The notes below the pieces were generated by a model. It saw only the letters and a list, made by a program, of their open reading frames with translations, made no database searches and was not told the DNA's origin. Below, piece by piece: positions 32,212 through 56,839 of a stretch of 64,000 bases of DNA. Each line of letters starts with the position of its first letter. Within the stretch, counting starts at the first letter, position 1. This stretch comes from Octopus vulgaris (lineage: Eukaryota): contig OX597814.1 in assembly GCA_951406725.2 (NCBI GenBank), positions 98,022,001 through 98,086,000 of the forward strand, given 5' to 3'. Position numbers and translations under genes: made by a program.

Positions 32212-32284
32212 GATTCCATAGTGTAGTCGTAATCACGTCTGCCTAACACACAGAAGGTTGTGAGTTCGATTCTCGCTGGAACCT
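32212..32284 (+). tRNA. tRNA-Val(AAC)-like gene or pseudogene
   Basis: gattcca/tggaacc acceptor (1 mismatch), D arm gtgtagtcgtaatcac, anticodon arm tctgc ctAACac acaga (1 mismatch), T arm gtgag ttcgatt ctcgc, TTTT just downstream. Confidence 0.8.
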
Positions 32285-33098: not shown

Positions 33099-34084
33099 TA
33101 ACTAGACCAGATTAAGAGAGGAAAAGAAAACAAACAAAAATCCTGCAACCCAAAACGAAACAACAACAAAAAAAGCATAATTACTTACACCGAAACTGGT
33201 TTTGAATTGATTCAATAAGAGATATATATTTAATCCAACGCAGAACATGATCAAAATTCCTATAAGTGTTTTCGCCAGAGGAAAGATATGTCTGTAATGC
33301 TAGTTGACTGAAGGGAAGAAAGGTAATATCAGTAATGCTGCCTTACTGAAAGAATAAATACTAGAGCGGTGACAAATTACAGAATATATGCTGTAACATG
33401 CTACTACACAAATATAATAGAAAAAAACAAACAAACCGCAAACAAATATTAACGTCACCTGAATAACGACTTGTCAAAATGAGATCTTCAGCGATTACGA
33501 GGTGAGCTGTTAATATGAAGTTATTTCTTGGCCGTTGCTTGTCGATTAAAAGGTAAGCTTCCAGTGACCCGAATTCGTGATCCGGTTTCCTGTCCCGGTT
33601 AAAGCTATTTCGCGCCCGTTACGACGATAACTGTATTGGGAAAGGCATCAACATCACTTAATGAGATGGTGGTGATTTTGCTTTTGTAAGCATTACCTTA
33701 ACTTTTGTTTGATGATTTTTATATTAGAGAGAGAGGGAGAGAGGGAGAGAGAGAGGGAGAGAGGGAGAGAGAGAGGGCAGAGAGAGGGGGAAAGGTAGGG
33801 AGGTGGTGGAAATTAAAGTTTTTCATATACCTACTTCTCTTACAATCCAAGTAGGGAAATGCTCCTTAGGACCTTTGGCAATTTCCACCAGTTGAGTCGA
33901 TAAGTAAGCTAGTATACCGTTTCAGCTTTAGGAATGGCACGTTTTGGCATAACCATTTTGGCGCCGCCTACATCGTTGATTTTGTTTTAAACCAAATCTA
34001 AACGGAACAAAGCTTCACTGCCACAACTTTATATGGATTCACTAATATATAAGATTGATACTTAAGCGACTCAGATGGTTAAGA

Positions 34085-34560
34085 ATAGTAATGTTTATAT
34101 GCCACAAAATGTGACAGTCCTATAAAGGACGATGTTACTGTTGTTTTAGCCCCAGGAAAACATCTTTTCCAGCTGGCTATCGACACAGAGTTTGTGTCCG
34201 TATAGCATTTACAAAGGAGGTCAGCCTTATGTGATACTCACAGACCTAGGTTTCTGAATGTTATCCATCTTCAGTGTGAGACCACCATAAGCTAGTGATG
34301 AAAGCTTCCTCTATTTGAAAATACTGTCTTTTTTTAAGCGACACACAGTCGATGGGCTTGTATAGAGAAAAACAACTCATTTTAAATCTCTGAGCGAGAG
34401 ATATACAGTAACAATACAGGATAGTAATGTTTATATGCCAACAGAATGTGGCAGTCCCTTAAAGAACGATGCTACTGTTGTTTTAGCCCCAGGAAAACAT
34501 CTTTTCCAGTTGGCTATCTACACAATTTGTGTCCATATAGCATTTGCAAGGGAAGTTTGC
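34085..34560 (-). mobile_element. Retrozyme-like partial tandem repeat (336 bp period, ~1.4 copies)
   Basis: 34085-34222 repeats at 34421-34557; unit contains an intact HHR and several hairpins. Confidence 0.78.
34237..34280 (-). ncRNA. Intact minimal type I hammerhead ribozyme
   Basis: CTCACA CTGAAGA TGGA taaca TTCA GAAA CCTAGG TC TGTGAG: perfect 6 bp stem I, complete core, palindromic stem III, GUC site. Confidence 0.92.
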
Positions 34561-35099
34561 TGTTACTGTATATAGTCTTGCTTACTTAACCACTGTAAAA
34601 CTTCTGCAAAAGCAATATAAGGTGGAGTTTTGGAATGGCTAATCCTTCGAAGCCCTTTGCCCCAAAGGGAAGGTGAAAAATGTTTCTTCTCTTTATTTTT
34701 TTTTTTTAGTATTCCTTACGCTTGTATTTATTTATCCTCATCATCATTTCTTTATATCGTTTAAGATTGAATCAAATATTAACAAATTAATTTCAGAAAG
34801 ATAACTTGAAATAGAAAACTCAACCAGTCATGAATATATATAATTATTATAGCTCTCATAGACACAAACTTGTACTTATTTAGCCATCTAAATGGAGGAA
34901 GTTTCTTAACCATCTTAGTTGCTTAAGTATCAATCTTATATATTAAGTACCTGATTTAAGCCGCTCAAGCGGCTCGCAGTAGATCTTTGTTATCGTTTGC
35001 TTTGGGCTTAAAAGTTCAAAGTGGACTAAACATTTCATATCTCACCAAACAGATAACAACACCTTATGTGGATGAAGACTTTCTTTAGCCTGGGGTTCC

Positions 35100-35565: not shown

Positions 35566-35681
35566 TCATATATATAAATATATAAATACACATATACATA
35601 TATACATATATATATGCATATATATACATATATAAACATACACATATATATGCATACATATATGCATACACATATACATTT

Positions 35682-35720
<39 letters not shown>

Positions 35721-35841
35721 TATATACATATATCTGTACATATTATATACATAGATATATAATTATATATATACGTGTATATATATATATATATATATGC
35801 ATCCTATATATATATACATCCTATATATATATATACATCCC

Positions 35842-38008
35842 AGATGTCACACTATTAACCCGGTTATCGAACTCGAACTCGATGTGTGACGCACTCATAG
35901 TACATCTAAAGCAACTTGATGTAGTGATATGCACTCTATATCGCCCACCTGATGCTTCAAATCATGATGGAAAATTTGAGGAAAGCCTCAGTGCGATAAA
36001 GGAAGTATTCACAGAAATGGATCGACGTACTATTTTATTCCTGATGGATGACTTCCATCTCCCCAACGTCAGGTCGCCTGAAGGCAATATAACCCCAGGA
36101 ATGACGCACAAAGAGCGAAATCAAACAGAATCTCTACTTGATCTTACGAAAATGCTATTCATAGAGCAGATCATACTCTCTCCAACCAGGCACAAAAATA
36201 TCCTGGACGTCTGTTTTAGAAACAATATGGAAAGTATTCACAATGTAAATACATCATCGACAATATTCTCAGACCATAACATGATAGAACTGACAATGTG
36301 TGGCCTGGAATTAACTAAAGATAAACTCTGCACAGATGTCCCAGAGAAGGGAGCCAATTCACTCAAAAACACCATTCCCCGAGACAAGAGAATACTCATG
36401 CGGCGGAGAATAAAGATCTCGAATCGTTTAAATAAACATCTTAATGACAGTGTGAAAATCCACCTGGCGAAATTAAACTCAAAATCTCCCATGAAAAAGA
36501 AAGAGAAGAAAGAGAAACCTGGGCAGTCAAAAATGTAAAAAGAAATCCTAAAGCCTTCTACACGTTGGCAAATGAGTCTGCCTCAGTACGCTATAAGATA
36601 AGGCCACCATTTGGTAAAAACGGCTCACTAACTGCAGACCCACGAAAAATAAGTGAATCACTAATAAACAATTCCGAAGTGTTTTCACTTCACTGGAAAA
36701 TATGCAAATAAACAAACCGAAGGAGCTTTTCAATGTAATGAATCTATTCGGAAAAGAGGCAACCATCGATTACATCAACATAACAGAAGAGGATGTAATA
36801 TCAGCCATTGATGAGATGAAATCAAACTCACCAACACGCCCAGGTGGACTACCAGCTGTTCTCTTAAAGACATGTAAAAAGGCCCTTGGAAAACCATTGC
36901 AGATAGTCTTTCATAGTTTCGTTGCATGTGGTACACTTCCCAACATGCTTAAAGAGGGTATAATATGGCCTGTCCCTAAAGGAGGGAGCAGAGCTGATGT
37001 TAAAATCTACAGGCCAATCTCTCTGACCTCGCATGTTAACAAGACAATGGAACGCATTGTCAGAAAAAGGCTGATCACTTTCCTAGAAGAAAACCTCACA
37101 AACACGCAACATGGCTTCCGTCCAGGGAGGAGCTGCCTCACACAGTTGCTGCAGCACTTTGACTGGGTATTGAAGCAACAGCTAAACCAGTCAGCTGTAG
37201 ACGTGATAATCCTCGACTTTGCCAAAACTTTCGACAAGGTTGATCAAGGCATGATATATATATATATATATATATTTGAGGAGACCCCCTTCGGTCATGA
37301 ATAACCATGGGATTGCACCTAGAAAGTTACCCTCCAATTCACAAGTCCGGGCAAGGTTGTTTGTGGAAGGCCAGCAGTCGCCCATGCATACCAGCCTCCC
37401 CTCTCCATGCTACCGATGTTATCCAAGGGAAAGGCAAAGGCCGATACAGCTTGGCACCAGTGATGTCGCAACTCATTTCTACAGCTGAGGTAACTGGAGC
37501 AACGTGAAATAAAGTGTCTTGCTCAAGAACACAACACGCAGCCAGGTCCGGGAATCGAACTTACAACCTCATGATCGTAAGCGCGACGCTCTAACATGTG
37601 GAAAATAATGGAGGGTCTGGCATCAATTGTGGGAATTGAAATCTATAACAACCCCCGAACTGGACGGCACTGCACAATACCAAAGGCCCCGTCATCTCCA
37701 TCGAGGATACGAACCTAATATTGTAATAGTTTGGGATTCAAGGGACCACAACTTTTTAATAACCTACCACAGAACATCAGAACATCAGGGATCTGCAAGG
37801 TATAGAATATTAGTCTTCAAAAAACGCCTAGAAACTTTTTGTCTGCAATTCCAGATGAACCCACATGGTGGCAGGAGGCACAAAGAAGAGCGGCAACGTC
37901 CAACTCGCTACTTCACCAGAAGCAATACTGGAAAACTTCCCGGACGCAGTAAAGGGCTTGCACCAGCATGGCCTCAGCCTCTGGCTGAAACCCATAAAAG
38001 ATAAAAAA
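35842..38008 (+). mobile_element. CR1-group LINE ORF2 (APE C-terminal half, RT N-terminal half, 3' tail); RT core deleted
   Basis: LYRPP, SPTRHKNILD, FSDHN; YRPISLTS, QHGFRPGRSC, LDFAKTFDKV; resumes at ~37596 with GPQLFN and PDEP. Confidence 0.92.
37275..37595 (-). mobile_element. SINE family C variant at the LINE deletion junction
   Basis: gttcgattcccggacc...gtgttcttgagcaagacact; head start missing. Confidence 0.85.
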
Positions 38009-39274: not shown

Positions 39275-39437
39275 GTGTATATATATGTGTGTGTAGGCAC
39301 GTGTGTATGTGTGTGTGTTGGTGTGCGTGCGTGTATATATGTGTGTATATAGTATTTGTGTGTTCTAGGACACGCCATATATTATTCATATATAAGTACA
39401 TTAAAGGCGAAGTATATATATATATAATATATATATA

Positions 39438-39507
39438 TAGACTGCAGTTTCGCCTATTTCAGCAATAAAAATAATATTTATTTACTCAGGTAGGCTCTTC
39501 AGTAAGA
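39438..39507 (-). ncRNA. Type I hammerhead ribozyme, copy truncated at the cleavage site
   Basis: Same core as 39839-39911 but followed by (TA)n immediately after GTC. Confidence 0.85.
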
Positions 39508-39838
39508 TTCCTGTTATTATGGGAAGCGCACATCAATAGAGGCACATGCGTCTATTAAATTGCTCGTTCTAAACTATTCAAATCACTGCGCAGACTCAGA
39601 ACGTACCCGACAAAATAGGGTTTTCTGGTATATCGTCTAACGCTCAAAAATTTATCGAGAAAATACGTAAACAAAGTCAAATGCGATACAATAAAATTAA
39701 TTATTATCGCTGGTGTTCTAGGACACGCCATATATTATTCATATATAAGTACATTAAAAGGCGAAGTGTGTACTAGATACACAAAAGCTGGATAAATTTA
39801 ATGAGATGAAAATTAAAAACTTTTACAAACTTAGTTCT

Positions 39839-39911
39839 TCTTAGACTGCAGTTTCGCCTATTTCAGCAATAAAAATAATATTTATTTACTCAGGTAGGCT
39901 CTTCAGTAAGA
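39839..39911 (-). ncRNA. Intact type I hammerhead ribozyme
   Basis: TCTTA CTGAAGA GCCTA [34 nt AT-rich loop] TAGGC GAAA CTGCAG TC TAAGA. Confidence 0.92.
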
Positions 39912-40087
39912 TTCCTGTTATTATGGGAAGCGCACATCAATAGAGGCACATGCGTCTATTAAATTGCTCTTTCTAAACTATTCAAATCACTGCGCAGACT
40001 CAGAACGTACCCGACAAAATAGGGTTTTCTGGTATATCGTCTAACGCTCAAAAATTTATCGAGAAAATACGTAAACAAAGTCAAATG

Positions 40088-40151
<64 letters not shown>

Positions 40152-40155
<4 letters not shown>

Positions 40156-40892
40156 GTAACAGAAAAGGAGAATTTCAGTTGTCCCCACGTGGTGGATTGT
40201 AATGTATATAAGAAAATAAAAACGGATAATACGCACACTTACATGGTTATTGTATAATTTTTAATGTATCGACCGGTTTCGCAATCGCTATTCATGATAC
40301 AATGTTTAATTTATATGAAAATACATTTTTCTTAAGAAGAAAATGGGTCCATGTTGTTTCTAATGAAATTCACGAGTGAATGATTTTACAAGTGGACAAG
40401 TAAAGGGAGGTAATTGGTTGTTATTATTGTTATTGTTGTGTGTAAGGGAGATAACTGTTCAGGTATACAGAAAAAGAAACAGGTTTAAAAAAAAGGGGCC
40501 TTGTTTAGTAGTGGATTTATGTACAATGATGTAATATGTAAAAATATACAAATTGGTTATGCGTGCTTATTAAGACGCGTTTTGTACTTTTCAATGAAGA
40601 AAGTTTCTTTATTTAAGCGTTCTAGTTGAGAGATTGTGTCTTTGCACTGGTAGAAAGGGAAGACTGTAAAATTTGGTTTGATGTTACCTACACATTTTTC
40701 TATGTGTTCACTAAGAGGAATTTGTCTGTATTGCGGGAAACAGATTTGCTCCTTATGTAGAGTGATTCTCTTCCTCAAAGTTAAACTCGTTTGTCCAATG
40801 TACTGATGACTGCAACCCGAGCAGGTTATTACATAAATTAGGTTCTCAGAGGCACAGGTGAAACTAGTTTTAATTGTGAACCTCTGTCCTTG

Positions 40893-44281: not shown

Positions 44282-46627
44282 AGAGAGTATTAGTGCGTAG
44301 GATTGGTCTGGACGTGCGTATGTATGGGGTTGGTGTATGTATTAGTATGTATTAGTATGTATTAGTACGTATTGGTATGTATAAGTGTGTGTGTGTGTGT
44401 ATGAGAGAGTATAAGTGCGTATGCGGGGTCTGGACGTGTGTATGTATTAGTATGTACTAGTATGTATTAGTAAGTACTAGTATGTATTAGTACGTATTAG
44501 TATGTATTAGTTGGTGTGTGTATTAGTATGGCACATCATATGTGATGTGATGTGTAAAGTCATGTGGTGTAGTGAGGAGAAGAGGGGGAGGGGGAGAAGA
44601 GGGGGAGAGAAGGGGAGGGGAAGAAGAGGGGGGAGAGGGGGAAGAGGAGAGGATGGGGGAGGAGGGGGATGAAGGAGGAAAGAGGGAGAGGGGGAGAGAG
44701 AAGGGGAGAGAGGGAGTGAGGGAGAAGAGGGAAGGGGAAGAGGGAGGGAGAAAGAGGGAAGAAGGGAAGGGGAGTAGGGGTGAAAGGATGAAGGACTGAA
44801 GAAGTAGGGGTCGGGGGGAAAGGATAGGTGAGGAGGGGGGAGAGGGGGGTTAGATGAGGAGGGGGAGAGTTGAGACCAAATGGCGTATAAGAGCGAAGAG
44901 AGAAGATTAATTCCTGTTCACGGCGCAAACGGGAATCCGGATGGCCTCTGTGTAAGGACAAACCGAACACAGATAGGTGTTGCAAGGAGTGACCGGTGGA
45001 GCGGAAATGGCGTGAGACCGGTGTGTCGTTCGCAAGGTGGATGTCACGAAGGTGTTCCGCGAACCGGTCAGCCAAGCGGCGTCCCGTTTGTCCGATGTAC
45101 AAGGAATTGCAGAGAGAGCAAGAGATGCAATAGATAATATTGCTGGAGGTGCAGGTGAAGGAGTGGATGATGGGATAGGGTCGATGGTGGGTGCTAGTGA
45201 GGCGGGTGGTGTTGGAGAGGTAAGGGCAAGTGCGGCAACGTGGGCGGGAGCAGGGGAACGAGCCGGGTTGGGAGGTAGGGTCAGGGAAGGAGCTATGGAC
45301 CAAAAGGTCTCGAAGGTTGTGGGCTCGTTTGAAAGAGGGAGGGGTCGGTTAGGGAAGAGGTGTGAAGTGGACGGGTCGGACTGGAGATGACGGAAAGCTC
45401 GAAGAATGGTGCGTTGGAGACGTAGGGTCGTGGGGTGGTAAGTGAGGGGAAAAGGGAGGCGGGAGACTACAGGGCGGGTTCGGGGAGAGAGAGCAGATAC
45501 ACGGTCCACGGACCGTGCTCTGGCAAGGGCGGTGTGGATAGTGGTGAGGGGGTATCCACGTAGGGTGAAGTGGTGAGCCATACGTTGAGACTGAGTCTCA
45601 AAGTCATGGTCGTCACTACAGAGCCTACGTAGACGGAGGAATTGGGAATAGGGGATGGAAAGCTTGGTGTGTTCTGGGTGGGAGGAAGAGAAGTTGAGGT
45701 ATGAGTGTGAGTCTGTGTGTTTGTAGTGAATGGAGGTGGTAAGAGTGGAGTGAAGAATGCTAACCGAAATGTCGAGGAAGGAGACAGAGGTGTTGGAGAT
45801 AGTGGAAGTGAAGTGGAGGGCTGGATGGAAAGATTGGACGAAAGAGAAGAAGGAATCTAGATGTTCGCGGGAGAGTGAGGTGGCACCGATAATGTCGTCA
45901 ATGTAACGACCATATAGTTCAGGAGTGGGACCAGTGAAATTAGAGAATATTTGGGCCTCAACATAGCCAACGAACAGGTTCGCATAGTTGGGGCCCATTC
46001 GCGTTCCCATGGCCACTCCCGAGACCTGATGGTAGAACTCGCCCGCGAACGAGAAGCAGTTCAGAGTAAGGACAAGTTCGGCCAGACGAATGAGTGTGGA
46101 GGTGTCAGGTACAGGGTTAGAGCGGAGGTCAAGAAAGTGTCGAAGGGCCTGCAGTCCTTCGTGGTGAGGGATAACAGTATAGAGGCTTTGGATGTCCATA
46201 GTAAAAAGGATTTTGGAGGAGCCGGGAGGAAAGGAGAAAGAGTTGAAAAGCCGGAGAGCATGGTTGGTATCGTGGATGTGGGAGGGAAGAGATGCCACTA
46301 GGGGGGCAAGGACACGGTCGAGGTATTTAGAGATGAGCTCCGTGGGGCAGTTACAGGCGGAGACGATGGGGCGGCCAGGGTTGTTGGGTTTGTGGATTTT
46401 GGGGAGGAAGTAAATGGTGGGGGTACGTGGGGTTCGCACAATTAGGTTGGATGCGGTGCGGGGGAGACGGGAGGACGAGATGAGGTCTTGGACAGTAGAG
46501 GATACCGTCTGTTGGTAGCTACGTGTGGGGTTAGAGGGCAGAGGGGAATAGAAGGAGGTGTCATTGAGTTGGCGGAAAGCCTCGGCCCTATAGAGGTCCG
46601 CGCGCCACATCACTACAGCTCCACCCT
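43879..46627 (-). mobile_element. Near-intact 5'-truncated Penelope-like element (Neptune-like): RT plus Cys linker plus GIY-YIG, HHR-bearing tail
   Basis: ORF 46613-44907 (FLPKIHK, GRPIVS, MDIQSLYT, GVAMGTRMGP, RYIDDI, FLD) and ORF 45303-44560 (CSRPRCRTC, IIYCISC..C..LYIGQT) joined by one frameshift near 45340; (TA)n on both sides. Confidence 0.96.
43977..44014 (-). ncRNA. Minimal type I hammerhead in PLE tail (CUGUUGA core variant)
   Basis: TCTTT CTGtTGA a GAGC gtag GCTC GAAA CG TT AAAGA. Confidence 0.78.
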
Positions 46628-46669
46628 TATATATATGTGTGTATGTATAAATATATATATAAATATATC

Positions 46670-52780: not shown

Positions 52781-52916
52781 TCCCTTCCAGGGGCGAATGG
52801 GTCATTTCCCTTGGTTTTGAAAATAAAATGTATTAGATATAAAGAAGGATCTCTCCAGGGGTTCTATTATCGATTTTATGAAGTCATAAATTGAAACTGA
52901 TTTGAAAATCGGAAAT

Positions 52917-52960
52917 CCACCTGACGAATGTCATTTGAAGACATGAAACAATTGTAGTGG
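52917..52960 (+). ncRNA. Intact minimal type I hammerhead ribozyme
   Basis: CCAC CTGACGA ATGTC atttgaa GACAT GAAA CAATTG TA GTGG. Confidence 0.9.
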
Positions 52961-54715: not shown

Positions 54716-56839
54716 TAGTTTTATTTTTATAGCGTGCTTTCACTTCACTACCGAGCGCAGCTCTGTGTGCCTTGGGTATGTGCTGTGATTTGTTGTGATG
54801 CTCTGATGGTTATTGTATGGAAAGTGTTCTGCGTAGGATGTGTGCAGTGCCTAGTAGTGCAATTTTCTGTATGTTATATGTGTTTGTAAGTCCTGGTGTT
54901 TTTGTTATGTATTTGTCTGAATATTTTTTTATCATGCCTAATGCACCTACTATGATAGAAATTGTTTCTGTTTTCAGGTTCCACATTCGTGTTACCTCTA
55001 TTTCCAGGTCTTTGTATTTTGAGAGTTTCTCCATTTCTTTTAGAGACACGTTGTCATCTGCCGGTATTGATACATCAATTAGAAAGCATTTTTTTCTTCA
55101 TGATCTCTGACAACTATATCTTGTCTGTTGGCCTTAATTTCTCTATCTGTGTGTATCGGCATATCCCAGAGTATGGTTGCTTTCTCGTTTTCTGTGACCT
55201 TTTCTGGTGTGTGCCTATACCATCTTTTTTCTGTTGTTATTCCATAATGTTGGCATAGCTTCCAATGTATGTAGGTTCCAACTCTGTCATGTCCGTGAAT
55301 ATATTCCTTCTTAGCCAGGACTGGGCAGCTAGAGATAATATGATTTATTGTTTCTTGTCCATCTCCACATATTCTGCAGTTACTTGTAATATTTCTTTTC
55401 ATTACATGTTTTTGGTAATTTCTGGTGGGGAGGCTTTGGTCTTGTGCTGCAATTAAAAATCCCTCTGTTTCTGCTTTGAGTCCTGAGCTTCTCAACCATT
55501 GCTGGGATTTTTCTTTGTCTATTTCTTTTGCGTTTAGTTTAGTGCAGTATTTACCATAAAGGGGCTTTTCTTGCCATCGTTTTATCATGGCTCGTTGCTG
55601 TTCTATTTTTAGTTTGGATTTCATTTGTTTTATAGCTTTTGTTGTTTCTTCATCATCTTCTTCTTCTTCTTTGTGTTTATTAGATGGTATGATTTCTTGT
55701 TTGTATTTGTCGGCTTCCTTAAATACTGAGAACAGTTTTTTGTTTTGCTCGTGTTTTGCTGCTATCTGGATCAGTTTTCCTTCCTTCTGAAGTAGGTATT
55801 TTTGCAGTCCTATGGTGGTTATTTTATAGTAGTTTTCCAGCTGTATAAGGCCTCTACCACCTTCTATACGTTGTATATATAGTCTTTCTATGTCAGATTT
55901 TGGGTGATGCATCCTAGATCCTGTCAGTATTTTTCTTGTTTTCCTATCTATTTTGGACAGTTCATTTCGTGTCCAGTTAAGGATATTGTAGCTGTAACTT
56001 ATAACTGGGACAGCTAAAGTGTTGATACCTATTATCTTGTTTTTAGCATTGAGCTCTGTTTTTAGTATTGATCTAACTCGTCTATAATATTCTTTTTTTA
56101 TTTTCTCTTTCATTTGTGTGTGTTGTGTCTTATCTAGTTCATGGATTCCTAAGTATTTGTAAGTTTGGCTTTGGTCTAATTCTTTTATTTCATCGGTTTT
56201 ATCTAGTGTGATGTTGTTACTCTTAACTAGTTTTCCTCTTTTCATGGTTACTTTGGCGCATTTTTCTAATCCAAATTTCATATATATTTCTTTGGTAAAT
56301 CCATGAACTGTCTTTAATAGTGTTTCCAGCTGTTTGTCATTTGCAGCGTATAGTTTTAGGTCATCCATATATAAAAGGTGGCTGATCGTTTTGCCGTAAC
56401 ATTTATATCCGCATCCAGTTCTATTTAGCATATCAGATAGAGGTGACAGTGCCAAGCAGAAAAGGAGTGGAGAGAGCGTGTCTCCCTGGAATATTCCTCT
56501 TCTAATGGGGATGTCTTTGGTTTTCATGAGTCTCTCTTTTGTTTGGAGGTGTAGGACTGTTTGCCATTTATTCATAGAGTGCTCTATGAATTTTATGATT
56601 GTTGGTGCTACTTTGTTAATGGCTAGTGTTTCGAGGATCCATGTGTGGGGGATGCTATCAAACGCCTTTTTGTAGTCAATCCAGGCCATACTGAGGCCTT
56701 TCTTCTTTCTGTGGCTGTCTTCAGTTACGGCTTTATTAATCATTAGTTGATCTTTACAGCCATATGAGCCTTTGCGGCATCCTTACTGCTCTTCTGGGAA
56801 CAGTTTATTTTCGTCCAGGTGCTTGTTCAGCCTTTGCGA

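Follow-up and report, generated by a model that had tools for sequence, protein, structure and literature searches.

A 472-nt tandem repeat with a hammerhead ribozyme motif, on the minus strand of the octopus genome, raises the question of whether it is an active retrozyme that gives rise to circular RNA, a piece of a coding retroelement, or the decayed remains of a copied insertion. The repeat occupies positions 34085-34556 of the window, by which we mean the whole 64,000-nt stretch of DNA that was analysed (G000:C1:98022001-98086000; the genome comprises 2.8 Gb in 227 contigs). The reading that we favor, with a probability of roughly 80%, is that 1.4 units of a 354-nt non-coding family, with a hammerhead predicted to self-cleave, were inserted here and have since decayed, and that they were probably copied by a Neptune-type Penelope reverse transcriptase/endonuclease, most likely from circular RNA.

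Anatomy of the locus and its hammerhead

The element consists of 1.4 units of a 336-nt non-coding repeat; its direct repeats are spaced 335-337 nt apart, and the partial unit overlaps the full one with 91% identity across 134 nt. The original prediction had described a 336-bp unit in about 1.4 tandem copies. The repeat and its extent were as described; the length, however, is that of a damaged 354-nt unit, which has lost 15 nt at 34223/34224 and a little more through small deletions. The accompanying claim that there is no open reading frame was borne out (the longest stop-free frame has 65 codons and the longest ATG frame 39). Non-coding, 336 or 354 nt long, and with a GC content of 39% in the 336-nt unit of the window and 42% in the 354-nt family unit, the repeat falls within the range given for retrozymes (non-coding, 150-450 nt, less than 50% GC). 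Its features are as follows.

34085-34420, minus strand: full unit, 336 nt long where the family has 354 nt; the main fixed 3' end of the family corresponds to 34085
34421-34556, minus strand: 5'-truncated partial unit (family positions 217-354), without a hammerhead, repeating the last 136 nt of the full unit
34237-34280, minus strand: type I hammerhead, recognized by sequence, descriptor match and covariation
34224-34297, minus strand: extended helix I arm that encloses the hammerhead and is damaged on its outer side by the 15-nt deletion
34101-34141, minus strand: 3'-terminal structured region directly before the fixed 3' end, with double changes in 4/8 and 2/5 pairs
34360-34420, minus strand: first ~60 nt of the unit, equivalent to the "tail" past the main 3' end in other copies
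34560-34573, plus strand: 14 nt of the unit (family positions 8-21) in inverted orientation, at the 5' junction
34043-34085, no strand assigned: 43-nt inverted copy of unique flank, abutting the 3' end of the element
34903-34945, no strand assigned: second arm of the 43-nt inverted repeat, 348 nt past the 5' end of the element

The 3'-terminal structured region holds one strand of a long-range helix (34141-34134), whose partner strand (34412-34405) lies within the first ~60 nt of the unit, together with two hairpins (34130-34117 and 34115-34101). The 14-nt inverted piece probably represents an inverted arm of minimal length, and the rest of the window contains no further 14-mer of the unit. 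The 43-nt inverted repeat has no further occurrence outside this locus, which rules it out as the end of a MITE, and inverted flank duplications were found at only 2 of 70 family loci (one of them low-complexity) as compared to 1.9% in the control. We cannot explain it beyond a rearrangement at or before insertion. (Microsatellites are abundant in the window, which also contains a tRNA-like Rfam match at 32212-32284 on the plus strand and LINE fragments with reverse transcriptase and endonuclease domains at 35636-37304 and 55079-56782.)

The hammerhead is built from helix I (34280-34275 paired with 34242-34237), a core strand at 34274-34268, helix II at 34267-34255, GAAA at 34254-34251, a palindromic helix III at 34251-34244 and C17 at 34243, which places the predicted cut between 34243 and 34242. 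Consistent with the original prediction of a type I hammerhead on the minus strand with a cut at this very position, all core letters (CUGANGA, GAAA and NUH, in type I order) are present, and a hammerhead descriptor gave three matches in the window against none in 20 block-shuffled windows. The third match (52911-52960, plus strand) has a 4-bp helix I and a palindromic helix III. In the flanks of loci L064, L068, L069, L097 and L117 lie further hammerhead motifs, whose 8-nt helix III palindromes differ and whose helix II loops are long; they suggest that many more families of this kind exist.

The word "perfect" that had been applied to this hammerhead is too strong. Helix III is a short 8-nt palindrome that forms only 2-3 bp, a dimer type; such palindromic helices are described as needing a second copy and as a feature of Penelope hammerheads (PMC4209133). 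There is no G10.1-C11.1 pair; at the base of helix II stands U-A, the product of CpG-type decay of an ancestral C.A mismatch that most family copies still have. Moreover, the Rfam hammerhead models gave no match at the locus even at E<=10, whether the whole window or a 551-nt stretch was searched. Folding of the motif alone was no better than that of shuffles (z -0.85). The open-core fold makes up ~0.05% of the modelled ensemble, and the catalytic fold is not the modelled minimum in either monomer or dimer; the double hammerhead was modelled at -264.0 kcal/mol, as compared to -257.0 kcal/mol for two single ones (a modelled gain of 7 kcal/mol) and -268.6 kcal/mol without constraint. Note that the locus carries one hammerhead and not two in tandem, and because the ribozyme is single, no monomer can be released from it by double cleavage.

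A family of decayed, folded units

In a first genome search, 40 scored candidates gave 41 places, with identities to the window of 76-85% throughout. Searches of the octopus genome itself gave 60 loci (4 duplicates were dropped and 56 kept), and the addition of 14 new ones (16 of a further 30 were already present) made a set of 70 loci that is biased towards the shape of the window copy. From 29 full units we derived the family unit of 354 nt. Copies differ from this consensus by 8-14% (20% at CpG and 8.9% elsewhere). A 22-nt family motif has 65 exact matches in the genome, against none for the reversed control, and its presence at 17 of 84 sampled sites scales to ~320 copies, which is likely a lower bound. 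(The 3980 first-look candidates, like run depth, were not used as a copy number since they include related families.) The family thus comprises at least ~300 copies, ~9% decayed. A sister family with a 358-nt unit (L123:5078-5320 and L159-L188; 2644 first-look candidates) is 69% identical and colinear along the whole unit, is ~5-8% decayed, and has the same two 3' ends. Seven of the 70 family loci span two cut sites and so have two hammerheads in tandem (L017, L019 and L028 are loci of this two-hammerhead kind), and none has three. Long arrays are absent: none of 65 arms picked by the motif, and 1 of the 70 loci, exceeds two units, the maximum being ~2.1. The hammerhead core is intact in 27/53 arms and, in a separate count, in 36/65 sampled passes.

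To ask which pairings have been kept, we aligned 23 of the 29 family units (6 with large deletions or second copies were left out) with 5 sister units. Double changes were present in 32 of 71 proposed pairs, as compared to 18.7 in shuffles (0/500 reached this), and 89% of alignment cells were paired, as compared to 31-44% when the structure was slid along the alignment; note that both controls flatter the structure, since it was drawn from the same sequences and relatedness inflates the shuffle control. Covariation extends over the ribozyme helices and the centre of the palindrome, three hairpins that precede the 3' end, and the long-range helix, which brackets the unit junction and is also recovered by RNAalifold. 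Within the ribozyme, double changes occur in 3/6 pairs of helix I, 3/4 of helix II and 3/4 of helix III, the last only as a palindrome, whose centre is UA in 18, CG in 4 and AU in 3 of the 28 units. Both sister families retain the C.A mismatch at the base of helix II. Of two further hairpins that had been proposed, gtcct/aggac is real and covaries in 2/5 pairs; gctat..atagc is also real, but its inner 6 pairs are without a double change. The family consensus folds with z -8.2 and the unit of the window with z -3.35 relative to shuffles. These compensatory changes, read from aligned copies, support the ribozyme and the folding of the whole unit.

The window copy differs from the consensus by 4.7% and 7.6% outside CpG, and its full unit has 29 substitutions in addition to the 15-nt deletion. 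Contigs of two sequencing runs (X17 and X18) bridge both junctions, and those of X18 differ by 21 of 297 and 42 of ~500 letters. Because the X18 junction contigs are 7-9% diverged, the insertion predates that split. No empty site was found: the insertion is present in each of the two runs with coverage of the locus. Thus the locus is a fossil, with a single ribozyme and shared with a lineage that is 7-9% diverged, and since it is old and decayed and has one ribozyme, it should give neither a unit-length nor a circular RNA. Family-like contigs occur in three runs that are guessed to be RNA; no starts, ends or strand are visible in them. The original retrozyme reading is supported for the family, which has a short non-coding unit, a constrained hammerhead and dispersed copies spread by retrotransposition, but not for this locus.

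A second hammerhead family lies at 39370-40090 on the minus strand of the window. It has a 404-nt unit and two hammerheads in tandem, which Rfam RF00163 matches below its cut-off at 39838-39912 and 39433-39508; its copies are 98-100% identical, multi-unit arrays occur on contigs C6, C11 and C19, and its profile has weak similarity (E 1e-5) to that of the 354-nt family. Judged by these properties, 39370-40090 would be a younger and far better candidate for an active retrozyme than 34085-34556.

Insertion ends, enzyme and template

The 3' ends of the 65 motif-picked arms lie at positions 343-3 in 34 cases, at 42-67 in 15 and elsewhere in 16, so that 49 arms end at one of two fixed sites ~60 nt apart (positions ~354 and ~60), and the 5' ends are scattered. 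Among the 104 arms of the 70-locus set, 73 end at the fixed sites, as compared to 12% expected. An inverted arm is adjacent in 27/70 loci, and inverted arms share the same two end sites in 19 of 23 cases. Dinucleotide repeats adjoin 38 of the 70 loci, the targets being TA repeats. Arms longer than one unit number 22 of 65. Target-site duplications were not enriched (3/70, with one clean 12-nt case, against 2.3% in swapped flanks). Truncation at the 5' end, partial tandem duplication, an inverted 5' arm, a terminal tail and microsatellite targets are the reported features of Penelope elements (PMC8557442), and the family displays each of them. Because of the two fixed 3' ends, the variable 5' truncation, the inverted arms and the TA-repeat targets, the insertions look Penelope-made. 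Circular permutation of the genomic copies had been named as a check; the copies are not randomly permuted, with 3' ends at two fixed sites in the Penelope pattern.

Coding Penelope elements of this genome have the cysteine linker of the Neptune type, a clade feature (PMC8557442), and some have intact 781-codon frames or identical copies. One coding Neptune-type family shares this pair of ends: in 23 of 29 copies they are ~50-57 nt apart. A member of this family has its 3' end in the window at 40160-40892 (minus strand, with GIY-YIG); a hammerhead-like motif, whose helix III is a palindrome and whose first core strand is non-canonical, is present in 6 of 8 copies inspected. A young Penelope-like element with reverse transcriptase and GIY-YIG-like frames occupies 44560-46667, also on the minus strand; among its 150 scored genome matches, most have 100% identity over the endonuclease part.

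A coding parent of the repeat was sought among the top-scoring candidates and in up to 1.5 kb of flank. No reverse transcriptase or endonuclease abuts family copies in sets of 70, 29 or 62 loci (overlapping sets; 0.8-1.5 kb of flank; one fragment lies 800 nt away in the set of 62), and nowhere in the sampled loci is a frame with reverse transcriptase plus GIY-YIG joined to the repeat. Likewise, a profile of both families run against 128 Penelope loci of the best-scoring families identified independent neighbours only and no similar coding 3' end. The original prediction would have been undone had the unit always been the end of a coding Penelope-like element; this was not so in any copy examined. 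A match at L123, 1.3 kb behind a Neptune frame, was considered as a parent and rejected, since that element, in 40 copies, stops 600 nt short of the match; it is a neighbouring sister-family copy. (At L124:3928-4500, a 287-nt tandem repeat directly follows the stop codon of a Neptune-type frame.) One locus in 30 of the sister family, L182 (G000:C10:61410474-61413708, positions 883-1735), does join the two kinds of sequence: a Neptune reverse transcriptase fragment, with 61% protein identity to L121 (a locus with an intact 781-codon Neptune frame), is fused on the same strand to a 1.2-unit sister-family arm, between TA repeats and without downstream continuation. The simplest reading is a template switch by a Neptune enzyme, and insertion into an old fragment followed by a deletion is possible.

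The cut site, which sits half a unit from the start points, bears on the template. Of the 65 arms, 61 run through it; 20 go on across the unit junction, where ends do not pile up, and 4 reach beyond a second cut site. The other 4 arms start exactly at the cut and represent three events (two clean truncations, one of them duplicated, and one internal deletion), against an expectation of ~0.3 ends per position; note that positions 124-125 hold as many apparent ends as the cut site. This weak pile-up is suggestive of stops on cleaved templates. Because so many arms pass both the cut site and the junction, the usual template would have been continuous, either a circle or an uncut multimer, and a circle is slightly favored because no three-unit master was seen. 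Non-consensus letters are shared by overlapping arms in 2.0% of cases within a locus (53 direct pairs) and in 0.7% between loci, as a single template would give. Reverse transcription around a circle, as originally suggested, thus fits these patterns, but an uncut multimer, though less probable, would also fit them. If the main reading is correct, we think the template was a little more probably a circle than anything else, with an uncut multimer a good deal less probable and jumps between linear RNAs rather unlikely.

Proposed history, alternatives and significance

According to the reading that we favor, rare loci with two hammerheads would be transcribed and the RNA cut as a double hammerhead held together by the helix III palindrome, giving a monomer that begins at family position 181; this monomer would then, as the literature leads us to suppose, be ligated to a circle. 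A Penelope protein would recognize the far, folded side of the unit and nick a TA-rich target, and DNA synthesis would begin at positions ~354 or ~60, where the fixed ends themselves are observed. Synthesis would cross the cut site and the unit junction and stop at scattered points, often with a second inverted arm, a pattern that is present in the copies. The copy in the window stopped after 1.4 rounds, and is now old, 5-8% decayed and left with one ribozyme.

An improbable alternative is that the unit is only the pseudo-LTR (a 3' end plus a 5' start) of a coding Penelope family that was not sampled. Insertions of coding Penelope elements have the same anatomy, the palindromic helix III is that of Penelope hammerheads (PMC4209133), Penelope endonuclease matches are abundant in the genome, and a survey of vertebrates reports that 24 of 57 frog retrozyme families resemble known repeats, nearly all of them Penelope ends (bioRxiv 10.64898/2026.07.22.740005). 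The unit is closed, however: its 5' start reaches the hammerhead within ~150 nt, arms that extend beyond position 1 enter the previous unit, the two families are colinear over the whole unit at 69%, and the overlapping sets of 70, 29 and 62 loci, drawn from top-scoring candidates with up to 1.5 kb of flank, have no abutting reverse transcriptase or endonuclease.

We regard it as very improbable that the locus is an active retrozyme making a ~336-nt circular RNA, or that its core has been kept for a host function. In favor, its core letters are all intact, as they are in just 36 of 65 sampled passes, and folding of its unit remains better than that of shuffles (z -3.35). Against this, chance leaves roughly half of all copies with an intact core, and the locus has a single hammerhead, the 29 substitutions and 15-nt deletion, and an insertion older than the 7-9% split. 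There is equally little to recommend the view that the partial second copy came from duplicating a satellite-like monomer in place, or from its unequal crossover, with reverse transcription never going beyond one unit. Satellite-like amplification has been proposed for retrozyme arrays (bioRxiv 10.64898/2026.07.22.740005), but here the same unit junction recurs in 20 of 65 unrelated loci, the 3' ends are fixed while the 5' ends are scattered, and the two parts of the window copy share no non-consensus letter. The main reading, a Penelope-copied insertion, accordingly places the locus as a real but ordinary member of the non-LTR retrozyme, or non-autonomous Penelope, class.

Metazoan non-LTR retrozymes, described in coral, mussel and axolotl (Cervera and de la Pena 2020, PMC7229834), are likewise short (350-390 bp in mussel), GC-poor and non-coding, with a type I hammerhead and strong self-pairing; dimer-dependent ribozymes are reported in axolotl, and a circle-based cycle with Penelope as the likely mobilizer was proposed in that study. 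The octopus family differs in reaching at most ~2.1 units, in being old and decayed, in its C.A mismatch, and in being known here from its sequence alone. The survey of Li, Clavereau and Pollet (2026, bioRxiv 10.64898/2026.07.22.740005), which covers 31 vertebrates and 4 other animals, proposes, on the basis of co-occurrence and sequence similarity, that animal retrozymes derive from Penelope pseudo-LTRs and use Penelope enzymes, and it reports cleavage in 1 of 9 tested dimers. In the octopus, by comparison, the link to Penelope comes from insertion ends and one chimera, without a similar coding parent. Since an "active" element requires two hammerheads in the survey's definition, monomeric offspring being common, the locus in the window would not be called active. 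With Neptune-type Penelope-like elements (PMC8557442, PMC4209133) the family shares 5' truncation, partial tandem copies, an inverted 5' arm, a tail, microsatellite targets and a palindromic helix III, and it differs from them in having no reading frame, a ~60-nt tail as compared to the reported 30-40, and a closed 354-nt unit. We found no description of cephalopod retrozymes in the literature, though the supplements of PMC7229834 and of the preprint may list such families; the squid genome paper counts 235 Rfam hammerhead loci and, in the part that concerns us, does no more than count them. Modestly new, then, are the covariation of the whole unit across two sister families, breakpoints that coincide with the cut site, and the fusion with Neptune.

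We entertain a more specific scenario only tentatively, as one that has somewhat worse than even odds. The family may be a fossil record of rolling-circle reverse transcription by Neptune, in which a 354-nt circle, cut by the ribozyme and re-ligated, was recognized by a conserved multi-branch fold that lies opposite the ribozyme, with copying from two fixed internal starts. Ends exactly at the cut site would then mark cleaved, unligated RNA, a germ-line trace of a ribozyme with an unusual C.A pair, and L182 would record a switch from the parasite RNA to the enzyme's own messenger.

The locus itself is an ordinary one, a dead copy of a known kind. That Penelope mobilizes retrozymes through RNA circles has been proposed in print, and the cited papers contain no direct test of it. 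The insertion ends of this family are a natural read-out of the process, with starts that are fixed, synthesis that reads through the ribozyme site, a handful of stops exactly there and one Neptune fusion, and they point to a covarying RNA fold as a candidate recognition signal.
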